A stretch of DNA of 64,000 nt, from assembly GCA_963817365.1 (NCBI GenBank), contig CAWFNZ010000004.1:1983818-2047817 (forward strand). Reading direction: 5' to 3'. This document shows, piece by piece, positions 1,612 to 25,690 of the stretch. The position numbers and the translations under genes were made by a program. The notes beneath the pieces are model-generated. The model made no database searches and was not told where the DNA came from. It worked only from the letters and a program-made list of their open reading frames with translations. Origin of the DNA: an uncultured Alphaproteobacteria bacterium (GTDB lineage: Bacteria; Pseudomonadota; Alphaproteobacteria; Rhizobiales; Rhodomicrobiaceae). The number at the start of each line of letters is the position of its first letter. Position 1 is the stretch's first letter.

Positions 1612-1654
1612 CACCCCAACTCTCCCAAAAAGACACGCCTGCGGCCGTTAGCCG

Positions 1655-3386: not shown

Positions 3387-3671
3387 GTTAGCCCCCATTT
3401 GCGATCCGCTTTGCGAACGGCGCAACCGCGGTGTTCCGGTGTTTGCCCCTAACCTCCCGGGGTAGGGTAGGCGCGCCCATTTTGTTGCCGCCACACCTGG
3501 TTGTTGCAAAAGTGCATCTTATACAACCGTGATCGCAAAATCGTCGATTCCCGTTCAAATAAATGATGCAACCCACGACCATTTTTGCTACTTTGGCAAT
3601 ATAGATTAGCCTTTAAGAACCAAATCATATTGCAGCCGTATACTAACAACAGGTAACCCGGCTACGCCGGG

Positions 3672-4580: not shown

Positions 4581-4751
4581 GTTTAGGCCTCTCTCAGAAA
4601 TAACCGCATCATATGGCGAAGGAATTTTGTTCGTCCGCAAGGCGCGAAAAGGGGCGCATATCCGAGATATGTAACCCTTTTTGCAACGCAGCGGGAGGAC
4701 AAAAGGACAAGCCAGGCGGCGCGGTTATTTCTGAGAGAGGCCTTAGCCCCG

Positions 4752-5435: not shown

Positions 5436-5448
5436 GATACGCCCGTTG

Positions 5449-6861
5449 TTAGAGGTGGATGGCGCGCTTGCCAACGGCGAGCGCGGCTTCTTTCACTGCC
5501 TCGGTCAGCGTCGGGTGCGCATGGCAGGTGCGTGCCAGGTCCTCGGCCGATCCGCCGAACTCCATCAGCACCGCCGCTTCGGCGATCATGTTCCCGGCAT
5601 CCGGCCCGACGATATGGACGCCCAGCACGCGGTCGGTCTTGGCATCGGCGAGGAATTTGACGAAGCCGTCGGTCTGCCGGTTCACCTTCGCGCGCCCGTT
5701 GGCCGTGAAGGGGAATTTGCCAACATTGTATGCGATGCCGGCGTCTTTCAGCTCTTCCTCGGTCTGGCCGATGCTGGCAACCTCGGGGAAGGTGTAGATC
5801 ACGCCAGGGATCACCCCGTAATTTACGTGACCGGCCTTGCCTGCGACGATTTCGGCCACGGCAACCCCCTCGTCCTCGGCTTTGTGCGCGAGCATCGGTC
5901 CGCGAACCACATCGCCGATGGCGTAGATGCCGGGCACATTCGTGCGGAAACGATCGTCGATCACGATGCGGCGCTTATTGTCGAGTTGTACGCCAGCTTC
6001 CTCCAGGCCGAGCCCTTCCGTGTAGGGCGCGCGGCCGATGGCGACCAGAACCACATCCGCGTCGAGCAGTTCTCGCGGGCCTTCGCCTTGCGCCGGCCGC
6101 ACGGTCACTCTGAGCGGTCCCGCGCCGTTCGGTTGAACGGCCGTCACCTTGGTGCCGAGCCGGAATTCCATGCCCTGCTTTTGCAGGATGCGCTGGAACT
6201 GCTTGGCGACCTCGTTATCCATGCCGGGAAGGATGCGGTCCAGGAACTCGACGACGGTGACTTTCGCCCCGAGCCTGCGCCAAACCGAGCCTAGCTCCAG
6301 GCCAATCACGCCGGCGCCCACGACGAGGAAGCGCTCCGGAACTTTGTCCAATTCGAGCGCGCCGGTCGAGGAGACGACACGCTTTTCGTCGATCTCGACG
6401 CCGGGCAGGCGGACGATATCGGAGCCGGTTGCGATTACTATCGTCCTGGTCTCAAGCGTCTTTTCCTCGCCCCCATCGACCGGCCGCACGAGCACCCGGC
6501 CCGGCGCCACGATGCGCCCGATGCCCCGGTGGGTATCGACCTTGTTCTTTTTCAGGAGGTACTCGATGCCCTTGACGTTGCCGTCGACGCCTTCCGCCTT
6601 GTACTTCATCATCGCGGGTAGATCGAATTCGGCGATGGCCCTGATGCCCATGCCTGCGAAACCGTGGTTCGCTTCCTCATAAAGCTCGGAGGCGTGCAGC
6701 AGCGCCTTCGACGGGATGCAGCCGACGTTGAGGCAGGTGCCGCCGAAGGTGGCGTTTTTCTCGACAACCGCCGTCTTCAGCCCAAGCTGCGCCGCCCGGA
6801 TCGCACAGACATAGCCGCCCGGACCTGTTCCGATGACAATCAGATCGTATGCGCCGGTCAT
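5449..6861 (-). CDS. lpdA: Dihydrolipoyl dehydrogenase
   Basis: [11 protein letters not shown] motif, [13 protein letters not shown] redox disulfide, HAHPTLTE active site. Confidence 0.97.
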
Positions 6862-7095
6862 GCCGTTCGTCTCCGCTTTGCTTTAAGGCCCGCTTGGCCG
6901 ATTCACACGTTGTATAACAAACGCCTGCCCGCGCCTCCAGCCTGCATGCGCGCCGCTGACGCTTTTCCTCGCGTGTTTTCGCCCGGCAGGCCCGTTTCAA
7001 CCAACATTGCGCTTATCCTCGACGGGCGCTAAAGCTTGACTTCGACGAAATCTCCGGCCATTCGCCGGGCCTCAACGGCTGCATTGGAGTTGCCT

Positions 7096-8508
7096 ATGAT
7101 AATTCCTGTTATCCTTGCGGGAGGTACGGGCTCAAGGCTTTGGCCCTTGTCGCGGGCGCAGCACCCAAAGCAGTTTCACGCTCTTGTCAGCGCCGAGCCG
7201 CTACTGGCGGACGCAGCCCGCCGCGTGCCCTCCGTGCCGCCCTATACGCCGCCGTTTGTCATCACGAACGAGCAAAACCGCTTCGGCGTCGCCGCCGCCT
7301 TCAAACATGCGGGACTGCCGCTAGAAAGCATCGTTCTTGAGCCCGAGGGCCGTTCCACCGCGCCTGCCGCGGCGGTTGCCGCGCATTTGGCAATCGAGAA
7401 GGCTGGGCCGGATGCGATTGTGCTCCTCATGGCTTCGGACCACTATATCGAAAATCCGCGCGCCTTCCTCGATGCGGTCGAGGCTGGCGCGGAAGCAGCC
7501 AAAGGCGGCATGCTCGTAACCTTCGGCATCAAGCCTTCCAAGCCGGAAACAGGTTACGGCTACGTCAAAACAAAAGGCAACCCCGGTCCGGGCGGCGTTC
7601 TCAAAGTCGAGCGCTTCGTCGAAAAGCCGGACAAGGAAACGGCAGTCCGTTTCTGCGCGGAACCCGGTTATTTCTGGAACTCCGGCATCTTCCTGTTTGG
7701 CGCGAAAGCGTTTCTTGACGAACTGGGCCGCTTCGAGCCGGATATGGTCCGCCAGACACTCGATGCCGTCAGCAACGCCACCAAGGACCTCAATTTCATC
7801 CGTCTTGCTCCGAGTTTCCGGAAATGCCGTTCCGATTCCATCGACTACGCGGTCATGGAAAAGACGGAGAAGGCAGCGCTCGTGCCGCTGGACGCGGGCT
7901 GGAGCGACGTCGGAACCTGGGATGCGCTTTTCGATGCAGCCAAAAAGGACGAGGCCGGCAATGTCACGCGCGGCGATACGCTGTTGCAAAACGCCAAAGG
8001 CTGCTATGTGCGCGCCGAAAACGGCATGGTAGCGGTGGCTGGCGTCGACGACATCATCGTCATCAGCACCAAGGACGCGATGCTGGTCGCCAAGCGCGGT
8101 GACAGCGGATCGGTCAAGGAAGTGGTGCAGGAGCTATCGTCCAACCACCGCTCAGAGGCGGAGCAGCACCTCACCGTGCACCGGCCTTGGGGGAGCTACG
8201 AAACCCTGCATATGAGCGAGCGCTACCAGGTGAAGCAGATCGTCGTGGAGCCCGGCGGAAGCCTGTCGCTACAGAAGCATCACCACCGCGCGGAGCACTG
8301 GATCGTGGTGAAGGGAACGGCGCGGGTTACCATCGGCGAAGAGGTCAAGCTTCTCTCCGAGAACCAGTCGATCTATGTGCCGCTTGGCGCGGTCCACCGC
8401 CTGGAAAATCCGGGCCTCATCCCGCTCACGCTTATCGAAGTTCAGTCCGGCCCTTATCTCGGCGAGGACGACATCGTGCGCCTGGAAGATATCTACTCGC
8501 GGACTTAA
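7096..8508 (+). CDS. manC: Mannose-1-phosphate guanylyltransferase / mannose-6-phosphate isomerase
   Basis: PVILAGGTGSRLWPLSR, FVEKP, WNSGIF, GWSDVGTW, C-terminal cupin RPWGSY...HHHRAEHW; GGAG RBS before 7096. Confidence 0.95.
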   Translation: MIIPVILAGGTGSRLWPLSRAQHPKQFHALVSAEPLLADAARRVPSVPPYTPPFVITNEQNRFGVAAAFKHAGLPLESIVLEPEGRSTAPAAAVAAHLAIEKAGPDAIVLLMASDHYIENPRAFLDAVEAGAEAAKGGMLVTFGIKPSKPETGYGYVKTKGNPGPGGVLKVERFVEKPDKETAVRFCAEPGYFWNSGIFLFGAKAFLDELGRFEPDMVRQTLDAVSNATKDLNFIRLAPSFRKCRSDSIDYAVMEKTEKAALVPLDAGWSDVGTWDALFDAAKKDEAGNVTRGDTLLQNAKGCYVRAENGMVAVAGVDDIIVISTKDAMLVAKRGDSGSVKEVVQELSSNHRSEAEQHLTVHRPWGSYETLHMSERYQVKQIVVEPGGSLSLQKHHHRAEHWIVVKGTARVTIGEEVKLLSENQSIYVPLGAVHRLENPGLIPLTLIEVQSGPYLGEDDIVRLEDIYSRT

Positions 8509-8532
8509 GAGAAGAGCCACGAAGCGAACCAC

Positions 8533-9210
8533 ATGAGAAAATCGCTCAATCTAGTTGGCGACGGCGACGAGTCCGATCTAATCAAAGACCTCGAAGATAT
8601 CTTCGCGATCAAGTTCGCTGTCGCCGAGCTTGCGGCATGCCGGACCGCGGGAGATCTGAATGGCATTCTCTGGCGGCATTTGAGCAGGCGTGCAGGCTCG
8701 GACAATGTCCGCTGCATGGACGCCATAGCGTTCTACGCCCTGCGCAGCGTGCTCGTATCGGCAGGCGCGGGCCGGAAAATCAAGCTCCCGGATCGCTTGG
8801 ACAGCTTTTCCATAACGCCAAAAGACCTGGCATCGGCACTGTGGAAGCAGAAAGGACTTGCGGTGCGATTTGCTTCCAGCGCGCTGGGGATAGCGGGCCA
8901 ATGGGTAGCGCTGGCGGCATTCCCGGCGGCGCTGCTGGGCTTGAAATGGCACGTCTCACTGATATTGGCCGTTGTTCTTGGTGCTGTTGGCTGGCATCTC
9001 ATGACGCGCGACCAGGGTTCCTTCAAAGGCTGCGAAACCGTGGCCGACGCCGCCGGTAGAATATCGAAGCAAAATTACGGCAAGCTGGTTGAGAAAGGCG
9101 CGCGCCTCGATCCCCCGAGCGTTTGGCGGGCGCTTTGCAACGCGCTGTCATGGCACGGGCATTGCCCCGCGGACGAGATCGGGCCCGGCACCCTCCTGAT
9201 CCACCCGTAG
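8533..9210 (+). CDS. Hypothetical membrane protein
   Basis: 225 aa with a central hydrophobic hairpin; N-terminus weakly carrier-protein-like. Confidence 0.65.
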   Translation: MRKSLNLVGDGDESDLIKDLEDIFAIKFAVAELAACRTAGDLNGILWRHLSRRAGSDNVRCMDAIAFYALRSVLVSAGAGRKIKLPDRLDSFSITPKDLASALWKQKGLAVRFASSALGIAGQWVALAAFPAALLGLKWHVSLILAVVLGAVGWHLMTRDQGSFKGCETVADAAGRISKQNYGKLVEKGARLDPPSVWRALCNALSWHGHCPADEIGPGTLLIHP

Positions 9211-9306
9211 ACGGCCGCCTTGCGCCAAAGCTGCGTCCCAAGCTCCCGGTCTATGTGCCTGGGCTGAAGGCTTTCTACCGCATCGGCAATTGCGCATCCC
9301 CTGCAG

Positions 9307-9353
9307 TGTATAGTTTCAATACAGCCCAGCTTGCCATGTACAATTGTAATACA
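9307..9353. promoter_or_regulatory. Two tandem TGT-N11-ACA sites, candidate activator (MmoR) binding sites
   Basis: TGTATAGTTTCAATACA (9307-9323) and TGTACAATTGTAATACA (9337-9353), ~160-200 bp upstream of the sigma54 promoter. Confidence 0.5.
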
Positions 9354-9509
9354 CTCATTATCCAGAATATTCATTGAAGCGGTGTGGCTTCGGTATCTAT
9401 GCGATAGCATGGAAGCCATGTACTCCTGCCGCTCAAAAAGAGCTAAGCGCCGGTTATTGCTTGCATAACAGTAGAAAGCGCCACAACGGCGTTTCCTGGC
9501 GCCACCGAT

Positions 9510-9525
9510 TGGCACGAAATCTGCG
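9510..9525 (+). promoter_or_regulatory. sigma54 (-24/-12) promoter of the mmo operon
   Basis: TGGCACGAAATCTGCG: GG-N10-GC spacing; sMMO operons are known to be sigma54/MmoR-dependent. Confidence 0.85.
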
Positions 9526-9633
9526 ATATAGCCTTTGCTAAGTGCCGCTCAGAGAAGATCGAGCGCCCGCAGATCTCAAGCGCAACCCGTGGCGGCTTTG
9601 GCTTGCATACCGCAAATGTAGGAGGAATTGCTT

Positions 9634-11208
9634 ATGCCCCTGAGTTCCGCAACCAAAGCGGCAACCGGCGCCCATCAAGCGAACCGGGCGCCTACCAGCG
9701 TAAGCCCCCAGGAGGTTCACCGCTGGATGCAGAGCTTTAACTGGGACTTCGCGAACAACCGCACGAAGTACCCCACCAAGTACAAGATGGCGTTCGATAC
9801 CAAGGAACAGTTCAAGCTCATCGCCAAGGAATACGCTCGCATGGAAGCCGTGAAGGACGAGCGTCAGTTCGGCACGCTCCTCGACGGCATGACGCGTCTG
9901 GGCGCGGGCAACCGCATGCACCCCAGATGGGGCGAGACGATGAAGGTCGCGTCCAACTTCCTCGAAGTGGGTGAGTATAACGCCATCTCCGGTTCGGCCA
10001 TGCTGTGGGATTCAGCCACCGCCGCCGAACAGAAGAACGGCTACCTCGCCCAGGTTCTCGACGAAATCCGCCATACCAATCAGTGCGGTTTCGTGAACTA
10101 CTACTACTCCAAGCACTATCACGATCCTGCCGGCCACAACGACGCGCGCCGCACACGGACCATCGGCCCGCTGTGGAAAGGCATGAAGCGCGTGTTCGCC
10201 GACGGCTTTATCTCGGGCGATGCGGTGGAATGCTCGATCAACCTGCAGCTCGTGGGCGAGGCGTGCTTCACCAATCCGCTGATTGTGGCCATCACCGAAT
10301 GGGCCTCGGCCAACGGCGACGAGATCACCCCCACGGTGTTCCTCTCCATCGAAACCGACGAACTGCGCCATATGGCGAACGGCTATCAGACCATCGTGTC
10401 GATCGCCAACGACCCGGCGTCGCAGAAGTACCTGAACTCCGACCTCAACAACGCCTTCTGGACACAGCAGAAATATTTCACGCCGGTGCTTGGCTGGGCG
10501 TTCGAATACGGCTCGAAGTTCAAGGTCGAACCCTGGGTCAAGACCTGGAACCGGTGGGTGTACGAGGATTGGGGCGGGATCTGGATCGGGCGCCTCTCCA
10601 AGTATGGCGTGCAGTCGCCGCCGTCCTTGCGCGACGCCAAGAAGGACGCCTACTGGGCGCACCACGACCTCGCGCTCATCGCCTATGCATTCTGGCCGCT
10701 GGGCTTCTTCCGGGTATCGCTGCCGGATGAGGAAGACATGGCCTGGTTCGAAGCCAATTATCCGGGATGGGATGCCCATTACGGTAAGATCTACCGCGAA
10801 TGGAAGAAGCTCGGCTGCGAAGATCCGAAGAGCGGCTTCATCCCGCTGAAGTGGTTCGCCGATAATGGCCACAAGATCTACGTCGACCGCGTGTCGCAAG
10901 TCCCGTTCTGCCCGTCGCTTGCAAAGGGCGCCAGCACGCTGCGCATCCATGAGTACAACGGCAAGAAGCACTCCTTCAGCGACGACTGGGGCGAGCGCAT
11001 GTGGCTTACCGAACCGGAGCGCTACGAGTGCCAGAACGTGTTCGAGCAGTATTCGGGCCGCGAGCTGTCGGAAATCGTGGTCGAAGGTCAAGGCTTGCGA
11101 GCTGACGGCAAGACGCTGATCGGGCAACCGCATGTCCGCGGTAACAATCTGTGGACGGTCGCCGACCTGAAGCGCGCAGGCATCGTGTGCGGTGACCCGC
11201 TGGCCTAG
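9634..11208 (+). CDS. mmoX: Soluble methane monooxygenase hydroxylase alpha subunit
   Basis: LEVGEYNA, DEIRHTNQC, GFISGDAVEC, GEACFTNPL, DELRHMANG: all di-iron ligands plus the Cys151/Thr213/Asn214 equivalents; AGGAGG RBS. Confidence 0.97.
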   Translation: MPLSSATKAATGAHQANRAPTSVSPQEVHRWMQSFNWDFANNRTKYPTKYKMAFDTKEQFKLIAKEYARMEAVKDERQFGTLLDGMTRLGAGNRMHPRWGETMKVASNFLEVGEYNAISGSAMLWDSATAAEQKNGYLAQVLDEIRHTNQCGFVNYYYSKHYHDPAGHNDARRTRTIGPLWKGMKRVFADGFISGDAVECSINLQLVGEACFTNPLIVAITEWASANGDEITPTVFLSIETDELRHMANGYQTIVSIANDPASQKYLNSDLNNAFWTQQKYFTPVLGWAFEYGSKFKVEPWVKTWNRWVYEDWGGIWIGRLSKYGVQSPPSLRDAKKDAYWAHHDLALIAYAFWPLGFFRVSLPDEEDMAWFEANYPGWDAHYGKIYREWKKLGCEDPKSGFIPLKWFADNGHKIYVDRVSQVPFCPSLAKGASTLRIHEYNGKKHSFSDDWGERMWLTEPERYECQNVFEQYSGRELSEIVVEGQGLRADGKTLIGQPHVRGNNLWTVADLKRAGIVCGDPLA

Positions 11209-11215
11209 CCGGGCA

Positions 11216-11305
11216 CGGCAGGGGGAGCGCCTCGCGGCATAGGGCGCTCCCTCCCCCCTCGCCGAAGCGGGCAGCAAAGCGAAGCTGAGCTGGGCGAGGG
11301 GTCTT
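11216..11305. other. GC-rich stem-loops in the mmoX-mmoY spacer
   Basis: GGGGGAGCGCC...GGGCGCTCCCTCCCCC inverted repeat followed by CCCCTCGCC...GGCGAGGGG. Confidence 0.55.
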
Positions 11306-11425
11306 TTCGCAACGAATGGCGGCTGAGTCTCCGCCAAGCCCAACGGTACCAGGCGCCACAAGGGACGGCAGCCGCGTCCCCGGCGAGCGTCAAAGCAGAA
11401 GAAACGTTTGAGGAGGAGTTAAGCC

Positions 11426-12598
11426 ATGGCCACAACCCAGGCCACAAGACGCGGTCTGACCGACCCGGAACGCGCGGCCGCAATCATTGCCGATATTCCC
11501 GAGCCTATCGATACGCAGCGCAGAATGAACTACTTCGTGACGCCGCGCGGCAAGCGGCTCAGCGAATACGAAATCCTGTCTCTTTACACCCAGCCCAATC
11601 CGGATTGGATTGCGGGTGGCCTCGACTGGGGCGACTGGACGCAGAAGTTCCATGGCGGGCGTCCCTCGTGGGGTAACGAGTCCACCGAGCTGCGCACTAC
11701 CGACTGGCATCGCCACCGCGACCCCTATCGCCGCTGGCACGCCCCCTATGTAAAGGACAAGGCCGAAGAGTGGCGCTACACCGAGCGCTTCATCGAAGCC
11801 TATTCCGCCGAAGGCGCCGTCCGTTCGATCGACACCTTCTGGCGTGACGAAATGCTCAACAAATACTGGGGCGCCTTCCTGTTCAACGAGTATGGGCTGT
11901 TCAACGCTCATTCCTCGGTGATGCGCGACTGCTTGTCCGATGTGATCCGTCAGACCGCCGGTTGCGCCGGGTTCGACAAGATCGACATCGCGCAGATGAT
12001 CCAGCTTGAGCGCACCCTGCTATCCAAGCTCGCGCCGGGCTTCCCAGAGTCGACCGACGAGCCGAAGAAGGTCTGGCTCAGCGATCCGGTCTACAAGAGC
12101 GCCCGCGCCGCGGTGGAAGAGGTGTGGCAGGGCATCCAGGATTGGAACGAAATCCTCTGGGGCGTGCATGCGGTTTACGACTCCATCTTCGGCCAGTTCG
12201 TCCGGCGCGAGTTCTTCGGGCGCATGGCCGCGCACTACGGCGACAACCTGACGCCGTTCTTCCTCGCGCAGTCGCAGACCTACTTCCAGATTAACCGCGC
12301 AGGGATACAGGACTTGTATCTCACATGCCTCGCCAACGATCCGGCCTTTGCCGGCCACAACCGGCGCTGGTTGCGCACCTGGACGTATAAATGGCTGTCC
12401 AAGACCGTGGATGCGATGCGCGATTTCATGGGCATCTACGCCACGGTGGACAAGGTCCAAGGTATCAGCGACGCCGCGGCCGTCGCCGCCACGGTGCGCC
12501 GCGTGCTCGCCGACTGGACGGAGGATTACGCCAACGGCATCGACTTCAAGATCGATCTCGACAAGACCACCGCCTACATCGTCAGCGGACTCAAATAA
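11426..12598 (+). CDS. mmoY: sMMO hydroxylase beta subunit
   Basis: SEYEILSLYTQPNPDWIAGGLDWGDWTQKFHGGRPSWGNESTELRTTDWHRHRDP; GAGGAGG RBS. Confidence 0.96.
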   Translation: MATTQATRRGLTDPERAAAIIADIPEPIDTQRRMNYFVTPRGKRLSEYEILSLYTQPNPDWIAGGLDWGDWTQKFHGGRPSWGNESTELRTTDWHRHRDPYRRWHAPYVKDKAEEWRYTERFIEAYSAEGAVRSIDTFWRDEMLNKYWGAFLFNEYGLFNAHSSVMRDCLSDVIRQTAGCAGFDKIDIAQMIQLERTLLSKLAPGFPESTDEPKKVWLSDPVYKSARAAVEEVWQGIQDWNEILWGVHAVYDSIFGQFVRREFFGRMAAHYGDNLTPFFLAQSQTYFQINRAGIQDLYLTCLANDPAFAGHNRRWLRTWTYKWLSKTVDAMRDFMGIYATVDKVQGISDAAAVAATVRRVLADWTEDYANGIDFKIDLDKTTAYIVSGLK

Positions 12599-12610
12599 GG
12601 AGGTGACGCC

Positions 12611-13027
12611 ATGTCTGCAGGTAAAAACGCCTATAACGCCGGCATCATGCAGAAGACCGGGGCCGCCTTCGCCGCCGAATTCTTCGCGGAGAAGAACCAA
12701 GTGGTTCACGAGTCCAACACGGTCGTGCTGGTGCTCATGAAGTCGGACGAGATTGACGCCATCGTCGAGGAGATAATCCTCGGTCCAGGCAAGAAGGAAA
12801 ACCCCTCCATCACGGTGGAGGACCGCACCGGCTTCTGGTGGATCAAGGCGGACGGCCAGATACAGGTCGATACGGACGCCGCCGCCGCGATGCTCGGCAA
12901 AACGTACTCGGTCTACGACTTCCTCGTGAACGTGTCGTCGACGATCGGGCGCGCCTATACGCACGGCAACACCTTCACGATCACGTCGGAGCTGATGGGC
13001 CTCGACCGCAAACTAACCGATATCTGA
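12611..13027 (+). CDS. mmoB: sMMO regulatory protein B
   Basis: NAYNAGIMQK, VVHESNTVVLVLMKSDEIDA, VSSTIGRAYT, TITSELMGLDR. Confidence 0.96.
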   Translation: MSAGKNAYNAGIMQKTGAAFAAEFFAEKNQVVHESNTVVLVLMKSDEIDAIVEEIILGPGKKENPSITVEDRTGFWWIKADGQIQVDTDAAAAMLGKTYSVYDFLVNVSSTIGRAYTHGNTFTITSELMGLDRKLTDI

Positions 13028-13126
13028 TGAGGGAAGGCGCCGCATCCGCCATGGCCGGGTCATTTCCCCGCCATGGCGGAGAAGGACGGATGCCCAACAG
13101 AGCACGAAGATAGTGAGGTAACCCCA

Positions 13127-13645
13127 ATGGCCAAGCATAATATCCATGACAATCCCCTGCGGGATGAATGGCTGGCGAAAATCGCCGCGCTCGACACCGT
13201 CGAGGCGGCAACCGGCTTCATTCAGGACTTCCGCAAGAACCACACGTCGCCGTTCCGGACGTCCTATGCGCTGGAACTCGACTATCTTTTCATCGAGGCC
13301 AAGATCGAGGAGCGGCTGTCGGTCCTGAAGGCCGACAAATTCAGCGACGCCGGCCTGCTGAACAAGACAACTACCGGCGAGGATGCCCTTACGGTCGCGG
13401 ACGCCTGGAAACGGCAGATGGACGCAGAAACCAGCAAGTACAAGGCCGAGAAAATACTCATCCAGTTCCGCCAGTTTTACAAACCGCCCGTGATGCCGGT
13501 GAACCACTTCCTGAAGGTGGACGCCTATCTCGGCTCGCGCCTCATGGAGCTGCGCAACACCGACTACTACGCAACGTCCTTGGCGGACCTGCGCAAGGAA
13601 CGTGGCGTGAAAGTGCTGTATCTCGCGAACGGCGTCACTCCGTGA
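13127..13645 (+). CDS. mmoZ: sMMO hydroxylase gamma subunit
   Basis: [50 protein letters not shown]. Confidence 0.95.
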
Positions 13646-13756
13646 CCGGGCCGCGGTGACGAAGAACGGCGGGCGCGGGATTGAGGAGGCCAGCCCCGCC
13701 ATTCGAAACCCGGCGGTCAGGCCGGGACATGCGAGCGCAAACGCAAGGAGGTAGCC

Positions 13757-14029
13757 ATGTACACGCGGGACATACTGGCCGGAAACGAAGCGCCATCGGC
13801 CCACGATCTGCCATTCACCGATGCGGCCGTTCTCGATCGGCATGACATCGAGGGCGATGGCCGCTACAGCGCGGTCATCGAGGACCTCGGGTTCATGTGG
13901 CGCTGGAGCCTGTTCCGGGGCCGAGAGATGTGCCAGCACGGCTGCTCGCTGAGCGAGCGTGCCTCGCGGGAGGCGGTCGGCCACGTGCTCGCCTTCTACG
14001 GCATCCGCGATAGCGGCGGGGAAACTTGA
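13757..14029 (+). CDS. mmoD: MmoD (OrfY)
   Basis: RYSAVIEDLGFMWRWSL...GCSLSERASREAVGHVL core; position between mmoZ and mmoC; AAGGAGG RBS. Confidence 0.9.
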   Translation: MYTRDILAGNEAPSAHDLPFTDAAVLDRHDIEGDGRYSAVIEDLGFMWRWSLFRGREMCQHGCSLSERASREAVGHVLAFYGIRDSGGET

Positions 14030-14101
14030 TGGCCTGAGGGTTTCCCGCCTCCTCGCCCAAGCGCGAAAGTTGGCGCAGGGCCTAACGAACAGCGGGAATC
14101 T

Positions 14102-14205
14102 CCCCTCACGCTGTCCCTCTCCCCTTGGGAGAGGGGACGTTGTTGTACGCTCCGAGCGCTATTCAGGCGTCCCTTCTCCCATTGGGAGAAGGACAGGATG
14201 AGGGG
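14102..14205. repeat. RIME/REP-like double-hairpin element, copy 2
   Basis: CCCTCTCCCCTTGGGAGAGGGGACGTTGTTGT...CCCTTCTCCCATTGGGAGAAGGACAGGATGAGGGG; same family as 5296-5423. Confidence 0.8.
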
Positions 14206-14405
14206 TGATACCCGCTGTTCGTTCCGCCATCCGCCGTTAATTGACGCAATTGTAGCAAACGGGCACCGCCCCCCGCTCCTGGCCACGGCATGGCCGGGGA
14301 ACGGGAGAACTGTGCCCGGAGAACGGCGAGAGCGACGCCATGAATACGCTACTCGCATTGTCAGCCTGAAACCGCAAAAGCCAAGCAAGTGTAGGGGAGA
14401 TTGGC

Positions 14406-15458
14406 ATGTATAAGATCACTGCATACACCGAGGACGGACGTGCTATCGAATTCGAGGCATCGCCCAACGAGGATGTGATCACGAGTGCGTTGAAACAGGA
14501 CGTCATTCTGCTGACGTCTTGCCGCGAAGGCGGGTGTGCCACCTGCAAGGCGGAATGCACGGACGGCGATTACGAACTGGCGAACGCCAGCGTGCAGGCT
14601 CTGCCGCCGGACGAAGAGGAAGATGGCTTCGTCCTCCTGTGCTGCACCTATCCGCGCAGCAATCTTACGCTCAATCTCCCGTATACGTCCGACAGGGTTT
14701 CGTTCGAGAAAATCAGCAAGGAATGGATCGGCGATATTGTCGTGGCCGAGCGCGTGTCGTCCAACGTCATGCGCCTGGTGATTCGCCCGGCCGATGCAGA
14801 AACGGGCAGGCCGGCGAAGCTGAAGTTCTGGCCGGGCCAATACATCGACATCGAGGTGCCGGGGACCAATGTCTGGCGCTCCTATTCCATGGCGGCTACC
14901 AGCGACAGCGGCGAGCTGGAATTCTTGATCCGGCTGCTGCCAAACGGGTTCTTCTCGAAGTTCCTCGTCAACGAGGCCGCTGCCGGCATGTGGGTGAGAC
15001 TGAAGGGTCCTTCCGGCGCGTTCGCCATGCGCGAGAACGGATTTAGGCCTCGTTACTTCATCGCGGGCGGCACCGGGCTGTCGCCAGTATTGTCGATGAT
15101 CCGCCACATGCGGATCGAGGGGCATCCCCAGCAGGCGAAGTTATTTTTCGGCGTCACCCACCAACACGAGCTGTTTTTCGCCGATACGCTGCGGGAGATC
15201 GAAAGCGCGATGGCGAATTTGGAAGTTCACATATCTGTTATAAATCCGGAATTGTCTTCGCCATATTCGGCAGGCACAGTAGTTGACGATCTGGTGAAGC
15301 ACTTTGAGCAAGACGGACCAAGTCCAGACATTTACGTGTGTGGGCCCCCGGGAATGATTGACGCTACACTTGCTGCAACCAGAAAGTATGGCATGCCAGC
15401 AGACCAGGTATTCTACGAGAAATTCCTGGCCTCCGGTCAGGTGCGGGCAGCGGAATGA
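14406..15458 (+). CDS. mmoC: sMMO reductase (2Fe-2S/FAD/NAD)
   Basis: SCREGGCATCK...LLCCTYPRS ferredoxin, WRSYS FAD motif, AGGTGLSP NAD motif, YVCGPPGM. Confidence 0.96.
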   Translation: MYKITAYTEDGRAIEFEASPNEDVITSALKQDVILLTSCREGGCATCKAECTDGDYELANASVQALPPDEEEDGFVLLCCTYPRSNLTLNLPYTSDRVSFEKISKEWIGDIVVAERVSSNVMRLVIRPADAETGRPAKLKFWPGQYIDIEVPGTNVWRSYSMAATSDSGELEFLIRLLPNGFFSKFLVNEAAAGMWVRLKGPSGAFAMRENGFRPRYFIAGGTGLSPVLSMIRHMRIEGHPQQAKLFFGVTHQHELFFADTLREIESAMANLEVHISVINPELSSPYSAGTVVDDLVKHFEQDGPSPDIYVCGPPGMIDATLAATRKYGMPADQVFYEKFLASGQVRAAE

Positions 15459-15738
15459 CCTGGTCAGCAAGGCAAGCCTTGGAGCATGACGATTTGGTTG
15501 CCGCTCCTTTTGCCGCCCTTGCGAATGCGGGGTTGCAGGGCAGTAAGCGCCGGGTGAGCGGCTCCCGCTTTAGCGGGAAACAACGAGTGCCGGAAAGCGG
15601 AACCGGCCGGGAATCGTCTGCTTTCGGCTTGCCATCCCCGGCGCCCGCAGCGCGCCAGGGTAAGGGGCGCACCGTCCGCGCTCGCGAGCTGGCATGTCCG
15701 GGTAAAGCGGCTGCGGCACATGTCCGGGATACGCGCAG

Positions 15739-17875
15739 ATGGGCTTGGAAGAGTATCATGTTACAGCAAACCGGCACGAGTTGATGGACAGCGGCTATAA
15801 CCTGACGCCGCCATATGCGAGGGCGGGCAACGGACAGGAAACGGGGCTGTTTCGCGTCGACCGTCCCGGCGTGGCCTGGGACTGGATGACCCAGACCGGC
15901 CAGGCGCCCAACCGTTCCGATTGGGTGCGCCCGCAGGTGGCGGAAAGCTGGAGCCGGTGCATCGGCGACTACGGCCTGATGCCGGGCGCCCGGCTGCCCA
16001 ACGGCGGAACCCCGCTCGATCCGGATCATCCGCGCGCATCGGGAATCCTCGCGCGGCACGATGCGCGGGCGACGCTCGCCAATATCGCCTTTAGCCTGCA
16101 TTCGCTGCTGCGGGATACCAGCGTGGCGCTGCTGGTGGCCGATCCCGCCGGTACGCTCATCCATGTCATGGAGGCAGGGCTTGTGCTCGGACCGGCTGGA
16201 CGGCGGCTGGTGGCGCTCGGCTCCCGCTGGCAGGAGCCGGTGCTCGGTAACAATGGCCTGGGGACCGCTGCCGTGCTGCGCAAGCCCGTAGCCTTCGACG
16301 GCAAAGAGCATTTCGCCGCCGAGCTTCACCCCTACGCCACGGTTGGCCAGCTGATTACCGGCCCCCAAGGAGAGCCGTTCGCCCTCCTCGGCCTGATCAC
16401 CGACCGGCACGACTCCGCCAGTTCCCTGCTTTGCTTTCTGCGGCTCGCCGAGCATCTGGTCGAGTTCGAACCTTTTCGAGCAGCTCGGCCCTGGCGGCTA
16501 TACGCTGCGCCTCCGGCCAACCGGCCTCGGAGCGGGCGTGGCGGTGGAGGATTGCCTGCTCGACGGTCTCATCGCCGTATGCGAGGCGGGCATAATCAGC
16601 GGGGCGACGCGGGCGGCGCTGGCGCTGCTCGGCTACGCGGAGCATCACGAATTGCTTGGCAAGCCTTTGGAAAACGTGCTCGGCCTTACCATAGCGCGCG
16701 TCCTGTCGGAACCCGCACTCGACAGCGCCGGCGTCGAGGTCACCGGTCCCGGCGGCCGCGTCCTTACTGTGCAACTTATAGGCGGCCGCCGCCTGTCCGC
16801 GCCGGTACGGGCCGCCGCCCGCGCCGGCACATCCGGCGGCGGGCGCAGTGCAGCACCTCGCGGCGGGATGCAATCCGGTCCCTCGGGCAATGGGCAATGG
16901 CGCGATACGGTGCTCGAAGCCGCACTGCAGAAGGCCATCGGCGCGCAGAAACAAAAAATCGGCATCCTGATTACCGGGGAATCCGGCGTCGGCAAGGACC
17001 ATCTCGTGCGCAAGATGCACGATGCGGGCACGCGGCGCGGGCGTCCGCTGGTGCTCATCAATTGTGCCGCCATCCCGCGCGATCTCATCAGTACGGAGCT
17101 GTTCGGCTACGAGCCGGGCAGTTTCACCGGCGCCCGCACCAAAGGTAAACCCGGCAAGTTCCTCGACGCACATACCGGAACGCTGTTCCTCGACGAAATC
17201 GGCGACATGGCGCTCGATCTCCAGGCAGCGCTGCTTTGCGCGCTCGATACCTCGGAAATCGTGCCTGTCGGCGGGGCCAAGCCGATCGTCGTCGACGTGC
17301 AGGTGGTGGCGGCGACGAACTCGCTGCTGCAAGAGTGCGTGCGCAAAGGCACATTCCGGCGCGACCTCTACTACCGGCTGAACGGCGCGCAGATCAACCT
17401 TCCCCCCTTGCGCGAGCGTCCCGACAAGCTGGGGCTCATCATGCACCTGTGGGACGCCGAGACGCGTGTGCAGGGCCGCGCCGGCGACGACATCTTCATC
17501 AGCGACGAAGTGCTGGAAATCTTCGAGCAGCACCCTTGGCCCGGCAATATTCGCGAACTGCGCAACGTGCTCAGGTCATGCATGGCGACAATGGCGCGAC
17601 AGGAACTGCGCGTCTCGGATTTGCCGTGCGATTTCCTGGAGGAAATGGCTGAAGGCGCATGTGGCGAACCCGTCGAGGCGCCGGAACCGCAGCAGGCAGC
17701 GATCCCCGAGACGCGCGCGCTCTCGGCAATGGAATTGCAAACCATTCGCTGGGCGCTGGAAGCAACCCAGGGGAATATTTCAAAATCGGCAAAGCAGCTC
17801 GGCATCACGCGGGCGACGCTTTACCACAAGATGGCGCGCTACGGGTTACGGAAGACGGAGCTGAGACAATCGTGA
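15739..17875 (+). pseudogene. mmoR: sigma54-dependent activator MmoR, +1 frameshift at ~16465 (possibly a sequence error)
   Basis: GAF-like N-terminus (VAESWSRC, LGNNGLGTA) in one frame; AAA+ motifs (ITGESGVGKD, ELFGYEPGSFTGA, RDLYYRLN, WPGNIRELRN) and Fis HTH in the next; removing one T gives ...EHLVESNLFEQLGP... Confidence 0.88.
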
Positions 17876-18240
17876 GTACCGGCGGCCCAGCCGAATATGG
17901 CGATCCAGATTTCATCGCCGGGATGGCCAGGGAACTCGACGCATCGGCGCGCAGGCTGGAAGCGCGCGAAGCGGAGCTGGTGGCACAGCTCGGAGCGGAT
18001 CGCGTGGCCGAACTGGCCGGACTTTGGGCCAAGGAGATGGACCCGCACGATGAGGCCGAGTTGAAGCGCAACATGGATTGGACGGACAAGGAACTCATTT
18101 GGGTGTGGTCGCGTCTAGAGCGCGCGCGGGCGCGGCGGGTGCTCGCCGGCCGGCAGGCGATGCTGCACATGCAATACGGTCCTGACACGCCGGAGACCGG
18201 CAAGGATACACAACAGACCGAAGGGGAAGCGGAGACGTAG
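17872..18240 (+). CDS. Hypothetical protein between mmoR and mmoG (orf2-like)
   Basis: GTG overlaps the mmoR stop (GTGA); 122 aa helical protein; position matches orf2 of Methylocella-type clusters. Confidence 0.75.
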   Translation: MSTGGPAEYGDPDFIAGMARELDASARRLEAREAELVAQLGADRVAELAGLWAKEMDPHDEAELKRNMDWTDKELIWVWSRLERARARRVLAGRQAMLHMQYGPDTPETGKDTQQTEGEAET

Positions 18241-18301
18241 CAACCAACAACCGGCGCTCATCAAAACATAAGTAAAAGCGCCGGGAGGGTAGGAAAAGAC
18301 C

Positions 18302-19987
18302 ATGGCCAAGGCATTTCATTTCGGCAGTGCGGGCCGCTTGCGCATGCTGGCGGGCGCCAACCTGCTGGCGGACGCGGTGCAGATCACCCTGGGTCCGCAC
18401 GGCCGCAACGTGCTCATAGAGCATCGCTCCGGCGGCATGGCACCGCTCCTCACCCGTGACGGCATCACCGTGGCGCGTTCCATCGAGGATGGCGACAACG
18501 CGCGAAACGCAGGGGTTGCCATGCTGCGCGAGGCGGCGCGGAATGTGTCGCGCGAGGCTGGCGACGGCACCAGCACCACCATCGTGCTCGCGCGGTGCAT
18601 CGCGGCCGAAGCAGTAAGGGCAATGGCCGCCGGAATGGAGCCGAAGGGCTTGCGCCAGGGCATTAACATGGCCATAGGCGCCGTCATCGCCGATCTCGAA
18701 TGCCGCGCCCGCAAGTGCACCGGCGGGCCTGCTCTCGCCAGCCTTGGCACCATCGCAGCTAACGGTGAAGAGCGCATCGGCACCATGCTGGCGGAGGTAT
18801 TCGAGCGGGTAGGGGCCGAAGGCATCGTAGCACTCGAACTCGGCGAAGGGCGTGACGACAAATTGGAGTTTGCCGAAGGCGCGAGCTGGGACCAGGGCTA
18901 TCCATCGCGTTATTTCGTCACCAACAAGGACCGCGAAACGGCCGAACTGGACAATCCGTTCGTGCTGCTTACCGACCGCACCATCACCCGGTTCGACGAG
19001 TTGATCCCAGCGCTCGACCTTGTGCGCGAGGAAAACGGCTCGCTGCTCATCGTGGCGGAAAATATCGAGGAGCGCGTGTTGCCGCCGCTCCTGCTCAACC
19101 ACATCCGCGCGGTCGTCCGCATGGTTCCAGTGAAGCCGCCGGGATATGGCGAGTCGCGTGCCCATGCGCTTGCCGATCTCGCTGTGCTGACCGGCGGACG
19201 CGCGATTTTGGAATCCTGCGGCGACGATCTGGCGCGCCTGCGCCTTGCCGATCTTGGCAGGGTGAAGCGCGCCGTGGTGACGGAAAATTCGATATCGATC
19301 ATGGGCGGCGGCGGTGAGGCTGGCGCCATCGCCGGGCGCGCCGCCTCCATCGAGCAGCAGATCGGCTGGATTCGCGATGGCGATCTGGCCAAAGGCTCGG
19401 CCATCGGCAAATCCCACGATCGGGAGCAACTGGAAGAGCGTTTGCGGCGTCTGAGCGGGGTTGCCGCGGTCATCCGAGTTGGCGGCGGCACGGAAGTGGA
19501 GATCAAGGAACGCCTGCAACGCTTCGGGAACGCCATGAACTCCATGCGCGGCGCGCTGCGCGAAGGCGTATTGCCAGGCGGTGGCACCGCTCTGCTGCGG
19601 GCGCGCGAAGCCTTGCGCGATCTGCCGCGCGAGCCGCAGGAAGTACGCTGCGGCGTCGATATCGTCGCCCGCGCGATTGCCGAGCCCGCCCGTCTGATCG
19701 CCGCCAATATGGTTGGCGACGACCCGGCGCAGGTGCTAGCGCGCATACTCGCCGGCGCCAGCCCTTTCTTCGGTCTCGACGCGCGGCACGGGCGCTTTGG
19801 CGATCTGTACGAACTCGGCGTGCTCGATCCGCTGATCGTGACGCGGCTTGCCTTGCAGGAAGCGGCAAGTGCTGCATCGCTGCTGATGACGGCCGAATGC
19901 GTCATCACGCAGATACCCGCGGAGGACCCGCTGTACGGCTATACGCCGGAGTGGGCGGCCGCCACACGCGAAGACCCGCGCCTATAA
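18302..19987 (+). CDS. mmoG: GroEL-like sMMO chaperonin
   Basis: TLGPHGRNV, TRDGITVA, AGDGTSTT, GVLPGGG; divergent GroEL at the end of the mmo cluster. Confidence 0.93.
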   Translation: MAKAFHFGSAGRLRMLAGANLLADAVQITLGPHGRNVLIEHRSGGMAPLLTRDGITVARSIEDGDNARNAGVAMLREAARNVSREAGDGTSTTIVLARCIAAEAVRAMAAGMEPKGLRQGINMAIGAVIADLECRARKCTGGPALASLGTIAANGEERIGTMLAEVFERVGAEGIVALELGEGRDDKLEFAEGASWDQGYPSRYFVTNKDRETAELDNPFVLLTDRTITRFDELIPALDLVREENGSLLIVAENIEERVLPPLLLNHIRAVVRMVPVKPPGYGESRAHALADLAVLTGGRAILESCGDDLARLRLADLGRVKRAVVTENSISIMGGGGEAGAIAGRAASIEQQIGWIRDGDLAKGSAIGKSHDREQLEERLRRLSGVAAVIRVGGGTEVEIKERLQRFGNAMNSMRGALREGVLPGGGTALLRAREALRDLPREPQEVRCGVDIVARAIAEPARLIAANMVGDDPAQVLARILAGASPFFGLDARHGRFGDLYELGVLDPLIVTRLALQEAASAASLLMTAECVITQIPAEDPLYGYTPEWAAATREDPRL

Positions 19988-20033
19988 CCTGCCCCAACCG
20001 GCGAGGCTCGCGGAGTCAAAGCGGTGCCTTAGT

Positions 20034-20579: not shown

Positions 20580-21103
20580 CGTGACACTACTTTCCTATAG
20601 GCGACAGTTAGATGCTTTAAAGACACGCTTAACAAGGAAGCTTGCGCCTTGTCAAATTTTATGTGGCTTGCCGTCTGGCTAGCTAGTGCGCTGATTTGTA
20701 ATGCTAAACATGTGGCACGCCGGACATTCCGCCAACGGAGGCGTACCCGTTACAATTTGCCGCGAACTATTGCCATCGGCGTTTTAATGCTGTAGCTAAT
20801 AAATATAAGTGTATGTTCTAGTGGTTGCAAAGAGGAGAAGTTTGCAACTTACGAAGAAGAGGCCGCACGGGTAGGTAGTAACGCGGGATGGGGGCAACTA
20901 TACAACGGAACAACTACAAGTTGGTACACTAAAGCCGTATTCACGCGGCGATGCGCAGGCACAGCGCACTCTGAAGTTTGCAGAAGCATAGAGGTCTGCC
21001 TGAATGGCAGGTCATATAACGGGCCGGGCACACACGTTTCCGGGACACGGTAGAGTTGTGTTCGAGTTGCCTTTGGTATAAACGGGCGGGTTGGGGTTTT
21101 TGG

Positions 21104-22912
21104 ATGCGTATTTGTTCTGCGTGTGCAGCGTTCGTGCTGCCGGCTGGGGCGGTCAAAGTCTGGCGGTTACTGGCAACGCCTTTAGCTTTAGCATTGGGCC
21201 TTGCTTTGGGTATGGGCCAAGCGCGCGCGCAGCAGCCGCCCGTGCAAGGCGACGTCAATCAAATCATGCAGCAGCAGCGCCAGGTCATCCAGCAGCAGGA
21301 GCAGGCGCGCCGCGAGCAGTTCGAGAGGCAGCAGCGGACCCAGGCTCCGGCTGAGCAGGCTGCCCCCGCCGAGCCTCAAACCGCCGCGCAGACCTCGCAT
21401 TGCGTTACGGTCCGCAACTTCGTTTTCGAGGGGGCCGAGCACCTGGAGCAGAGTGTCAAACAGCAGGTGCAGAAGAGTTTCGGCGGAAAATGCATGACCA
21501 TCGTGGATATTCTCACGGTGGTGAAGACGGTTACCAACGTCTATGTCGGCGAGGGATATGTCACGACGCGCGTCTTCACGCCGGAGCAGGATCTCTCCAA
21601 GGGCACGCTTCGCTTCAAGGTCATCGAAGGGCGTACACAGAGCGTAAATCTTAGCGACAACGGCCAGGAACGCGCCGGCCTCGACACGGCCTTTCCCTTC
21701 CTCGTAGGCGAGCGCCTCTATATCCGCGATATCGAGCAGGGCCTCGACCAGATCAACCGCATCCCAGGGTTCGAGGCGAAAATCAAGATTCTGCCCGGCG
21801 AGGGCGAGGGCGAAAGCAAGATCGTGGTCGATGCGAAGCATCCCTTCCTGCCGCTCGTCACCAACACGATCGATAATCTGGGCTTGAAAACCACCGGCGA
21901 ATGGGAGATTGGCACGACCATTACGATGGGCGACCTTCTCGGGCTTTACGATAGCTGGTCGGTGGGCTACAAATCCAGCTCTCAAATCTACGACGGAAAG
22001 ATCGGATCGGACCAGTATAACGCGAGTGTTTCAGTGCCTTACGGCTACTGGACTCTGACGCTGTCCGGAAACTATTTCGACTATAAGTCGATACTCCCGA
22101 ACACCAATTACCCGGTCCTCTCGACCGGTGACAGCATATACGCGACGGCCGATCTCGAACGGGTTATCTACAGGGACCAAGACAGCAAGACCCGGGTCGA
22201 TGCGTTCATCAACTACAAGGATGTTGCGAATTTCTACAACGATGTGGAGACGGAGACTGGCAGCCGCAAGCTGAACGTCTTGGGTATCCGCTTGTCGCAG
22301 ACGCAGCGCATTTTCGGCGGGCTGTTCGATGGGGACATCAACGCCCAGTTCGGCGTACCGATGTTCGGCACGCTCACGGATGCGGACTCGCTGCCGGGCA
22401 CCGTGCAGAAGGCCCAATTCAGCAAGCTCGCGGGCGATTTAAGCTTCTACCGGCCCCTCGATCTGAGCAGCCTCGGCATGAAGGATGTGCATCTCGCGTA
22501 CAGCTTCAAGGCGTCGGGCCAGTACACGCAGGACGTGCTCTACAACACCGAGCAGCTGACGATGGGCGGCTTCTACACGGTGCGCGGCTTCAAGACGCAA
22601 AGCCTTAGCGGCGACAGTGGCGCCTTTACGCGCAACGAGCTGATCTACACCATGCCTTATTTGCTGCCGGACGAGTTCAAATCGGCCTTCGCGCAGGTGG
22701 ACCTGTTTGCCGGCCTCGACGCGGGCGGGTTCTTGCCGAGCAAATATGATCCCACCCAATCCGGGATGATGAGCGGTATCGCGGCCGGCATGCGGCTTAG
22801 CAAGGGGCCGCTGTTCGGCGAGGTCTCCTACGAGCGTCCGCTTTCGGCTCCCGAGTTCATTCCAATGCAGGACCAACTCGTTGTGCAGGCAGGGCTGCTC
22901 TACAAATGGTGA
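21104..22912 (+). CDS. ShlB/FhaC/CdiB-family two-partner secretion transporter
   Basis: POTRA (YVGEGYVTTR; IRDIEQGLDQINR), NTIDNLG, GGFYTVRGF motif, C-terminal aromatic residue; start uncertain. Confidence 0.93.
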   Translation: MRICSACAAFVLPAGAVKVWRLLATPLALALGLALGMGQARAQQPPVQGDVNQIMQQQRQVIQQQEQARREQFERQQRTQAPAEQAAPAEPQTAAQTSHCVTVRNFVFEGAEHLEQSVKQQVQKSFGGKCMTIVDILTVVKTVTNVYVGEGYVTTRVFTPEQDLSKGTLRFKVIEGRTQSVNLSDNGQERAGLDTAFPFLVGERLYIRDIEQGLDQINRIPGFEAKIKILPGEGEGESKIVVDAKHPFLPLVTNTIDNLGLKTTGEWEIGTTITMGDLLGLYDSWSVGYKSSSQIYDGKIGSDQYNASVSVPYGYWTLTLSGNYFDYKSILPNTNYPVLSTGDSIYATADLERVIYRDQDSKTRVDAFINYKDVANFYNDVETETGSRKLNVLGIRLSQTQRIFGGLFDGDINAQFGVPMFGTLTDADSLPGTVQKAQFSKLAGDLSFYRPLDLSSLGMKDVHLAYSFKASGQYTQDVLYNTEQLTMGGFYTVRGFKTQSLSGDSGAFTRNELIYTMPYLLPDEFKSAFAQVDLFAGLDAGGFLPSKYDPTQSGMMSGIAAGMRLSKGPLFGEVSYERPLSAPEFIPMQDQLVVQAGLLYKW

Positions 22913-22995
22913 CGCGCGGCGCTTCCGCTATTGCAACTGGCGCCCCGTCCGAGGCAGGCGCCGCTGAAAAGGTTCAAAAGGGTTTGGTGAGTACG

Positions 22996-25566: not shown

Positions 25567-25569
25567 GCC

Positions 25570-25690
25570 TCTTTCCGGATTGAAGAACCTCAAGGGCTTC
25601 ATTGAAGCCCTTGAGGGAGAGCTTGAAATTTAGATTTTGGCCGTTCAGGCAGTGGATGTTTGTTAAGCCGGCCTAACCCGATTTGAGAGG
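25570..25690 (-). pseudogene. Remnant of a second ialB copy (3' end)
   Basis: ...TTGAAGCCCTTGAGGGAGAGCTTGAAATTTAGATTTTGGCCGTT...CCGATTTGAG aligns with ialB 20050-20170. Confidence 0.75.

Follow-up and report, generated by a model that had tools for sequence, protein, structure and literature searches.

The stretch of DNA analyzed here (hereafter the window) is 64,000 nucleotides in length and corresponds to C4:1983818-2047817 of the 6.29-Mb, five-contig assembly of an uncultured alphaproteobacterium (genome G000). Positions 9510-19987 of the window, on the + strand of the 2.49-Mb contig C4, carry a gene cluster for soluble methane monooxygenase (sMMO). Judged from its sequence, this cluster very probably encodes a canonical three-component sMMO operon with a regulatory tail, carried by a non-phototrophic Rhodomicrobium as an accessory module that is confined to one subclade of the genus and is not a recent import. 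As part of the same explanation, we consider it highly likely that the cluster has moved, has been replaced and has been partly deleted within that subclade.

Using open reading frame (ORF) listing and family searches, we identified a sigma54 promoter, mmoXYBZDC, mmoR, a small conserved ORF and mmoG, in that order. This agrees, gene by gene and in position and strand, with a preliminary description made from the sequence alone. MmoY, MmoB, MmoZ, MmoD and MmoC each scored above their own NCBIfam equivalog cut-off in profile searches, and all genes of the six-gene core (mmoX, mmoY, mmoB, mmoZ, mmoD and mmoC) lie in one operon. The features of the block are as follows:

9299-19989, + strand: whole sMMO block (in blastn, the congeneric loci L001-L003 align to the window over 9299/9453 to 19989 and nowhere else, with 84-89% identity)
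9456-9476, + strand: palindrome of the CTGTTAT-N7-ATAACAG type, approximately 35 bp upstream of the -24 element (kept in the four type-A clusters defined below; alignment A3)
9510-9525, + strand: sigma54-type promoter of mmoX, TGGCAC-N5-CTGC (conserved footprint in five Rhodomicrobium clusters)
9634-11208, + strand: mmoX, hydroxylase alpha subunit, 524 aa (Pfam Phenol_Hydrox)
11426-12598, + strand: mmoY, hydroxylase beta subunit (NF045802, 710 bits against a cut-off of 700)
12611-13027, + strand: mmoB, regulatory protein B (NF045804, 249 bits against a cut-off of 245)
13073-13645, + strand: mmoZ, hydroxylase gamma subunit (NF045805, 258 bits; PF02964; start codon uncertain, as the family match begins at residue 24)
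13757-14029, + strand: mmoD (orfY) (TIGR04550, 82.6 bits against a cut-off of 80)
14072-14235, no strand assigned: imperfect palindromic repeat in the mmoD-mmoC spacer, resembling a miniature inverted-repeat transposable element or repetitive extragenic palindrome (inverted repeat with 68-nt arms)
14406-15458, + strand: mmoC, reductase with 2Fe-2S, FAD and NAD domains (NF045803, 507 bits against a cut-off of 500; Pfam Fer2, FAD_binding_6 and NAD_binding_1)
15739-17875, + strand: mmoR, sigma54-dependent activator, in two frames as assembled (Sigma54_activat, AAA_lid_14 and HTH_8 in the 3' frame)
17872-18240, + strand: small conserved ORF, 122 aa (GTG start overlapping the mmoR stop as GTGA; start read from the sequence)
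18302-19987, + strand: mmoG, GroEL-like chaperonin, gene intact (Cpn60_TCP1 and GroEL subfamily models, 522 bits)

The start of mmoX was placed at ATG 9634, which is preceded by GGAGGA; the ORF list began instead at TTG 9628.

The MmoX protein aligns end to end and without gaps with that of M. trichosporium OB3b (6vk4), with the same residue numbering, and the full-length alignment is also gapless for 1mhy and 1mty (the structures compared include hydroxylases of Methylosinus sporium and Methylococcus capsulatus). All six di-iron ligands (E114, E144, H147, E209, E243 and H246) are kept, in columns that are invariant in alignment A1. MmoX also keeps N116, C151 and T213 and the motifs EVGEYN, RHTNQC, EACFTN and ETDELRH, so that both the ligands and the methane-type residues named in the preliminary description were confirmed by alignment. 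Butane/propane-like relatives carry G or A at position 116 and T at position 151 (GEYA/GEYG and NQT). Mutagenesis of butane monooxygenase is said to have established these residues as discriminating the methane type from the butane/propane type.

A similar picture is obtained from an MmoX tree of 87 sequences, comprising 81 MmoX from species-representative genomes and six butane/propane-like outgroups. In it, the MmoX of Rhodomicrobium group together (support 100) within the methane-type clade (100), along with the characterized sMMOs and apart from the butane/propane-like outgroup. The grouping with butane/propane monooxygenases that had been named as grounds for abandoning the assignment is therefore not what the tree recovers. 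The Rhodomicrobium clade falls outside Methylocystaceae; its order relative to Methylocella/Methyloceanibacter, Rhodopila, Skermanella, Acidiphilium and the gamma- and betaproteobacterial lineages is not resolved by this tree.

It is very unlikely that the enzyme is instead a monooxygenase of short-chain alkanes (ethane, propane or butane). The group 3 soluble di-iron monooxygenases do include butane and propane enzymes, whose MmoX identity is 62-67%, and propane is among the substrates of facultative hosts such as Methylocella. Three observations stand against this alternative. First, N116 and C151 match the methane type; at these positions the outgroup carries G or A and T, respectively. Second, MmoX lies inside the clade of characterized sMMOs and is 82-83% identical to the structurally solved enzymes. 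Third, the cluster encodes MmoD, has the mmoR/mmoG tail and is found together with pmoCAB, the genes for particulate methane monooxygenase (pMMO).

Position 9510, at which the preliminary description began the cluster, is the start of a sigma54-type promoter, TGGCACGAAATCTGC. All five Rhodomicrobium clusters, that of the divergent locus L004 included, share the pattern TGGCA-N-GAAA-N-CTGC without change, amid surrounding DNA that varies. This promoter was recognized from inspection of the DNA upstream of mmoX and from its conservation, and not by a consensus scan: a sigma54 consensus scan of the window gave a single match, with one mismatch, at 9151, which is not above chance. The palindrome at 9456-9476 may be a site for the activator or for integration host factor.

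G000 was placed in one genus with 38 other species genomes (39 in total), across which RpoB is 88-97% identical. The host is a Rhodomicrobium, and not a member of Methylocella, Methyloferula or Methylocystaceae, a placement that the preliminary description had named as grounds for abandoning its reading. MmoX was found in five of the 39 genomes (G000, G015, G018, G020 and G036), and four of these five also have pmoA. The photosynthetic reaction center genes pufLM occur in 19 of the 39 genomes and in none of the five with MmoX; the idea that the sMMO-bearing species are phototrophic methanotrophs was rejected on this basis. In an RpoB tree, the five MmoX genomes fall in one clade of seven genomes (98 in the Shimodaira-Hasegawa-like approximate likelihood ratio test), which lies inside a clade of ten genomes without pufLM; dsrA is present throughout the clade. 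Genome G035, which is 98% complete, is inside the methanotroph clade beside G018 and G020, yet it is without mmoX, mmoR and pmoA, as is G033. Therefore, the whole methane module has either been lost from these two genomes or been gained repeatedly. The named records of the four sMMO-bearing relatives are three Microflora Danica metagenome-assembled genomes (MAGs) and the Stordalen fen MAG fen_921 (locus L004). The Rhodomicrobium-related peat genome given earlier as a rare precedent is of the same lineage as the window (fen_921).

We consider it extremely unlikely that the sMMO block is foreign to this genome as a result of chimeric assembly or binning. Although CheckM-type contamination is 3.9%, the block is embedded in the 2.49-Mb contig between manC (82-89% identical to that of congeners) and ialB, its composition is native, and pmoCAB and xoxF are on the same contig. 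A megabase-scale contig bearing the sMMO operon argues against a binning artefact for G000.

Homology of the window to the G036, G018 and G015 loci does not extend beyond 9299/9453-19989. Each genome has different flanks, and the flanks of the congeners' sMMO loci map to scattered places in G000. In G015, pmoCAB and copper-handling genes are directly upstream of sMMO, forming a single block of approximately 20 kb (L003 = G015:C67, 375-20141); bp 375-9592 of this locus equal the pmo region of G000 (C4:2210348-2219719). Genes similar to copCD upstream of pmoC are found only in the pmoA-positive genomes.

The history of the cluster also conflicts with that of its hosts. G018 and G020 are nearest relatives by both rpoB (94% nucleotide identity; 81% at fourfold-degenerate sites) and manC (93% and 86%, respectively), but their sMMO genes are the most divergent pair, with fourfold-site identities of 59% for mmoX, 40% for mmoC and 48% for mmoG and an MmoG protein identity of 63%. 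Two sMMO types can be distinguished: type A, in G000, G015, G018 and G036, and type B, in G020. MmoG proteins of types A and B are only 62-64% identical, although the host sister genomes are 98% identical in RpoB. The comparison of an sMMO tree with host markers that had been recommended in the preliminary description, made here with rpoB and manC, exposed this conflict directly: the concatenated sMMO tree has the topology (G020,(G000,G015,G018,G036)) with full support and rejects a pairing of G018 with G020 (approximately unbiased (AU) test, p 2e-78), while the rpoB plus manC tree rejects the sMMO grouping (AU p 1e-49).

Genome G036 contains sequences related to both types. Its type-A cluster is without mmoR. 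On a second long contig (L155 = G036:C22, 12240-15250), beside xoxF-flhA-fghA, there are a sigma54 promoter, a remnant of mmoX and an intact mmoR. The remnant comprises approximately 30 first codons and is degenerate and G020-like, while the L155 mmoR is 81% identical to that of G020 and approximately 70% identical to those of type A. On this contig, xoxF and flhA-fghA are ordered as they are in G000. In sequence, this locus looks like a deleted type-B cluster from which the regulator has been kept.

The patchy distribution of the cluster (5 of the 39 genomes), the change of surroundings from one genome to the next and the disagreement between the sMMO and host trees together support horizontal movement of sMMO within the subclade. 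The block is native in composition (80th percentile for GC and 69th percentile for tetranucleotide distance), and it is therefore not a recent foreign arrival. Silent-site identity among the four type-A clusters is 65-82%, close to the 68-75% seen for rpoB. No integrase, tRNA or flanking direct repeats were found at the block edges; given this and the ordinary composition, the proximity of the cluster to a contact-dependent inhibition (CDI) locus carries no weight. The earlier proposal of a horizontally acquired block next to a toxin island thus holds with respect to mobility within the subclade, but not with respect to a recent arrival or a tie to the island. An empty-site test at manC-ialB is uninformative, as synteny in the subclade is broken into blocks of 1-4 kb, with only manC-orf8533 kept.

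An alternative explanation is that no transfer took place within the genus: sMMO would have descended vertically from the subclade ancestor and been lost in G035 and G033, and the incongruence would be due to mis-binning. This is unlikely. It would fit the restriction of all sMMO genomes to one seven-genome clade, the similarity of type-A silent-site divergence to that of rpoB, the native composition and the fact that the relatives are MAGs. It does not account for two deeply divergent lineages (MmoG at 62-64% identity against host sisters at 98% in RpoB), for the coexistence in G036, on long contigs, of a type-A cluster with a deleted type-B relic, or for a genomic context that is different in every genome. 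Movement within the subclade is therefore preferred. There is perhaps an even chance that it took a more specific form, in which sMMO is an exchangeable cassette among methanotrophic Rhodomicrobium: types A and B would have replaced one another between species, G036 would have a chimeric regulatory arrangement (type-A structural genes with a resident type-B mmoR beside a deleted type-B cluster), and in some genomes the cassette would form a "methane island" with pmoCAB and the copper-handling genes next to it.

As assembled, mmoR of G000 is in two frames (ORFs 15739-17148 and 16538-17875), a split that had gone unremarked in the preliminary description. Alignment with the intact orthologues of L002 and L003 attributes it to one extra T at 16465/16466 (GAGTTCGAA as opposed to GAGTCGA). 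Intact single-frame orthologues of approximately 700 aa are found in L002, L003, L004, L008 and L009. No second copy of mmoR was found in a search of the G000 genome.

Insertions of the same kind affect other G000 genes. The form II RuBisCO gene cbbM (C4:1094247-1094657) has four isolated 1-nt insertions within 400 bp, tkt of the cbb operon (C2:135916-137937) is in three frames from two 1-nt insertions, a bamB-like gene (C4:2138688) is broken by a 1-nt deletion, and two further conserved genes have isolated 1-nt insertions (sites C4:642472-643828 and C4:819419). Cases were counted only if confirmed by nucleotide alignment, as an automated screen over-calls frameshifts from alternative-frame ORFs in high-GC DNA. 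In these alignments with congeners, the insertions lie outside homopolymers, nearly all of the indels are insertions, and the affected genes are otherwise highly conserved. As cbbM and tkt are disrupted by insertions of this kind, the mmoR frameshift is probably a Nanopore consensus error. The MAGs of the relatives come from a Nanopore-only catalogue. The pattern suggests long-read consensus error, and pseudogene calls in G000 therefore need read support.

If the break were real, sigma54-dependent expression would be lost. The cluster would then be transcriptionally dead, with mmoR a true pseudogene and the cell relying on pMMO alone, which we consider rather unlikely. Such a state would be in keeping with the position of the extra T, which is not in a long homopolymer, with the lack of another mmoR, and with the loss of regulatory parts in relatives (mmoR from the G036 cluster and most of the small ORF from that of G015). 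However, the insertion aside, mmoR is 89-90% identical in protein sequence to that of G018 and free of stops, all of the structural genes are intact, and the indels in cbbM, tkt and the other genes, including the bamB-like deletion, fit consensus error. We therefore continue to read the cluster as an operon with a probably intact regulator.

The preliminary description had stated that there is no other C1 gene in the 64 kb, which is correct for the window, and had suggested that sMMO might by itself make the host a methanotroph. The latter is contradicted by the rest of the genome, in which the recommended search recovered both xoxF and pmoCAB. The pmoCAB genes are at C4:2214648-2217969, 222 kb downstream of sMMO on the same contig, and all three subunits score over their equivalog cut-offs. 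The genes xoxF, xoxG and xoxJ are at C4:441330-444580: XoxF matches TIGR03075 at 768 bits and contains the motif WDYDG, the Asp of which we take to mark the lanthanide type, while xoxG and xoxJ were identified with TIGR03874 and TIGR03871, respectively. Adjoining xoxF are flhA (S-(hydroxymethyl)glutathione dehydrogenase; TIGR02818, 632 bits) and fghA (S-formylglutathione hydrolase; TIGR02821, 437 bits). A cbb operon, cbbR-fbp-prk-tkt-cbbLS-cbbX-rpe, is at C2:132731-141784, with form I RuBisCO intact; its tkt and the form II cbbM are broken as assembled. Fae was not found in G000 by a profile search that matched positive-control genomes. For the serine cycle, there was no MtdA-type match in a search made without a positive control.

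In Methylosinus and Methylococcus, MmoR and MmoG activate the sigma54 promoter under limiting copper, and pMMO takes over when copper is supplied. By analogy with strains OB3b and Bath, MmoR and MmoG of the window would activate the promoter upstream of mmoX when copper is scarce. The sMMO would then hydroxylate methane to methanol, with MmoB gating the hydroxylase MmoXYZ and MmoC delivering electrons from NADH, and pMMO would take over when copper is available. The gene content suggests that methanol would be oxidized by the lanthanide-type XoxF and that formaldehyde would pass through the glutathione-linked FlhA/FghA route. Carbon fixation via the Calvin cycle is proposed because no Fae/tetrahydromethanopterin route was found.

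Several points weigh against the reading of the cluster as an active sMMO operon that has been exchanged within a methanotrophic Rhodomicrobium subclade. With respect to activity, both methane hydroxylation and expression of the cluster are predicted from the genes of an uncultured organism, and mmoR is broken as assembled in a genome with no second copy. With respect to carbon assimilation, the PRK of the cbb operon was recognized by an N-terminal motif that we presume to be characteristic and not by a family search, and the lack of a match to MtdA or MtdB in G000 comes from the search without a positive control. With respect to exchange, the groups compared in the AU tests were defined only once the distances were known, the host tree comprises rpoB and manC only, and the relatives are MAGs, such that a binning error that swapped a contig between co-occurring congeners could look like incongruence. 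Finally, the name of the genus rests in part on two papers that name the lineage Rhodomicrobium.

Several known systems resemble this one. Methylocella silvestris (TVC, L008) has an identical gene order that is collinear over the full length, an MmoX that is 87% identical, and a sigma54 activator and a GroEL-like gene downstream. It differs in belonging to another host family and in its other subunits, which are only 53-82% identical. Furthermore, Methylocella uses the serine cycle and is not known to have pMMO, whereas the window genome has pmoCAB and an apparent Calvin cycle. Compared with the enzymes of strains OB3b and Bath (6vk4, 1mhy, 1mty and 1fyz), MmoX is 82-83% identical without gaps and with the same numbering, the ligands and active-site residues are kept, and the same six genes are present. 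In contrast to the window, the small conserved ORF is located approximately 2.2-2.6 kb upstream of mmoX in Methylosinus/Methylocystis loci. In OB3b, mmoR and mmoG are presumably also upstream of mmoX, while in Bath we take the order downstream to be mmoG-mmoQ-mmoS-mmoR. Methyloceanibacter methanicus R-67174 is similar in that sMMO is found in an otherwise non-methanotrophic genus, with the same gene order and an MmoX identity of 87%; it is reported to have sMMO only, while the window genome adds pMMO.

The same gene order also occurs in Methyloceanibacter, Rhodopila, Skermanella, Nevskia, Glaciimonas and a Methylophilaceae MAG. Because it is this widespread, it is not a Methylocella signature: the order called Methylocella/Methyloferula-type in the preliminary description is indeed collinear with that of M. 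silvestris TVC, but it is not specific to Methylocella. Similarly, sMMO outside the classical methanotroph families is less rare than had been supposed, as complete methane-type clusters are found in Skermanella aerolata KACC 11604 (an isolate), Rhodopila, Nevskia, Glaciimonas, a betaproteobacterial MAG and Methylophilaceae MAGs. In the Acidiphilium sMMO locus, no mmoR was detected. Most of these non-classical hosts are already listed in bioRxiv 10.64898/2026.02.02.703227.

The closest systems are the putative methanotrophic Rhodomicrobium of peat and Danish soils. Singleton 2018 (PMC6155033) describes HYP1 and HYP2 as carrying both pMMO and sMMO, with Rhodomicrobium as the nearest isolates. 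The preprint bioRxiv 10.64898/2026.02.02.703227 reports 15 Rhodomicrobium MAGs with PmoA and MmoX, xoxF, glutathione-linked oxidation and the Calvin cycle, and Microflora Danica MAGs that include "Rhodomicrobium methylothiovorans". The window genome belongs to the same genus-level lineage, its MmoX is 93-97% identical to those of the four other sMMO genomes, and its repertoire is the same (pmoCAB and sMMO, xoxF, the glutathione route, the Calvin cycle and dsrA, with no pufLM), with no essential difference. The sMMO cluster is genuine, but, given this match, the lineage and its sMMO have already been described.

Two parts of the cluster deserve separate mention. The small ORF at 17872-18240 has no Pfam or NCBIfam match, and its C-terminal approximately 90 aa are kept alongside mmoG in the sMMO clusters examined of Methylocella, Methyloceanibacter, Methylosinus, Methylocystis, Methylococcus and others; in the G015 cluster, most of this ORF between mmoR and mmoG is missing. 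Based on this conservation, it is a candidate uncharacterized sMMO accessory protein. The mmoD-mmoC spacer is the sole part of the cluster without homology to L001-L003, and each congener has a different insert at this position. The repeat at 14072-14235 belongs to a family with approximately 547 BLAST high-scoring segment pairs across the genome. It includes a hairpin and a T-rich tail, which could attenuate transcription ahead of mmoC. An Rfam search of the window returned zero matches.

The genes flanking the cluster are as they had been described previously: leuB, a ROK kinase gene, lpdA and manC upstream, and ialB downstream, followed by a two-partner-secretion/CDI locus with a deaminase toxin. 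The CDI-type locus (21056-37579) encodes a ShlB/FhaC transporter, an 886-aa TpsA and a 2502-aa filamentous haemagglutinin-like protein with a C-terminal deaminase domain, followed by a DUF6911 protein (likely the immunity gene) and an orphan haemagglutinin-repeat fragment. Beyond it, at 38-42.5 kb, is a low-GC stretch (0.49) without clear genes. Elsewhere on the contig, just downstream of pmo (C4:2219873-2224496), the 3' end of priA is duplicated, with a Phd/RelE-like toxin-antitoxin pair and a TIR-domain protein encoded between the two copies. This region looks like an island inserted at the priA end.

Rhodomicrobium is a genus known for purple phototrophs that bud. The known range of wetland methane oxidizers is widened by a subclade that is not phototrophic and has both methane monooxygenases, XoxF and the Calvin cycle, and a methanotrophic Rhodomicrobium links the methane and sulfur cycles. 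The case for both is already in print (PMC6155033; bioRxiv 10.64898/2026.02.02.703227). Three points may be new: that sMMO occurs in two lineages at odds with the host tree, that G036 retains a type-B relic and that pmo and sMMO are adjacent in G015. The available portions of the two papers contain no mention of the two lineages, the G036 relic or the varying contexts, and the words "Horizontal" and "mmoR" are absent from the main text of the bioRxiv paper. The suggested exchange of the operon among close species is relevant to the spread of methanotrophy and to the value of mmoX for taxonomic assignment.

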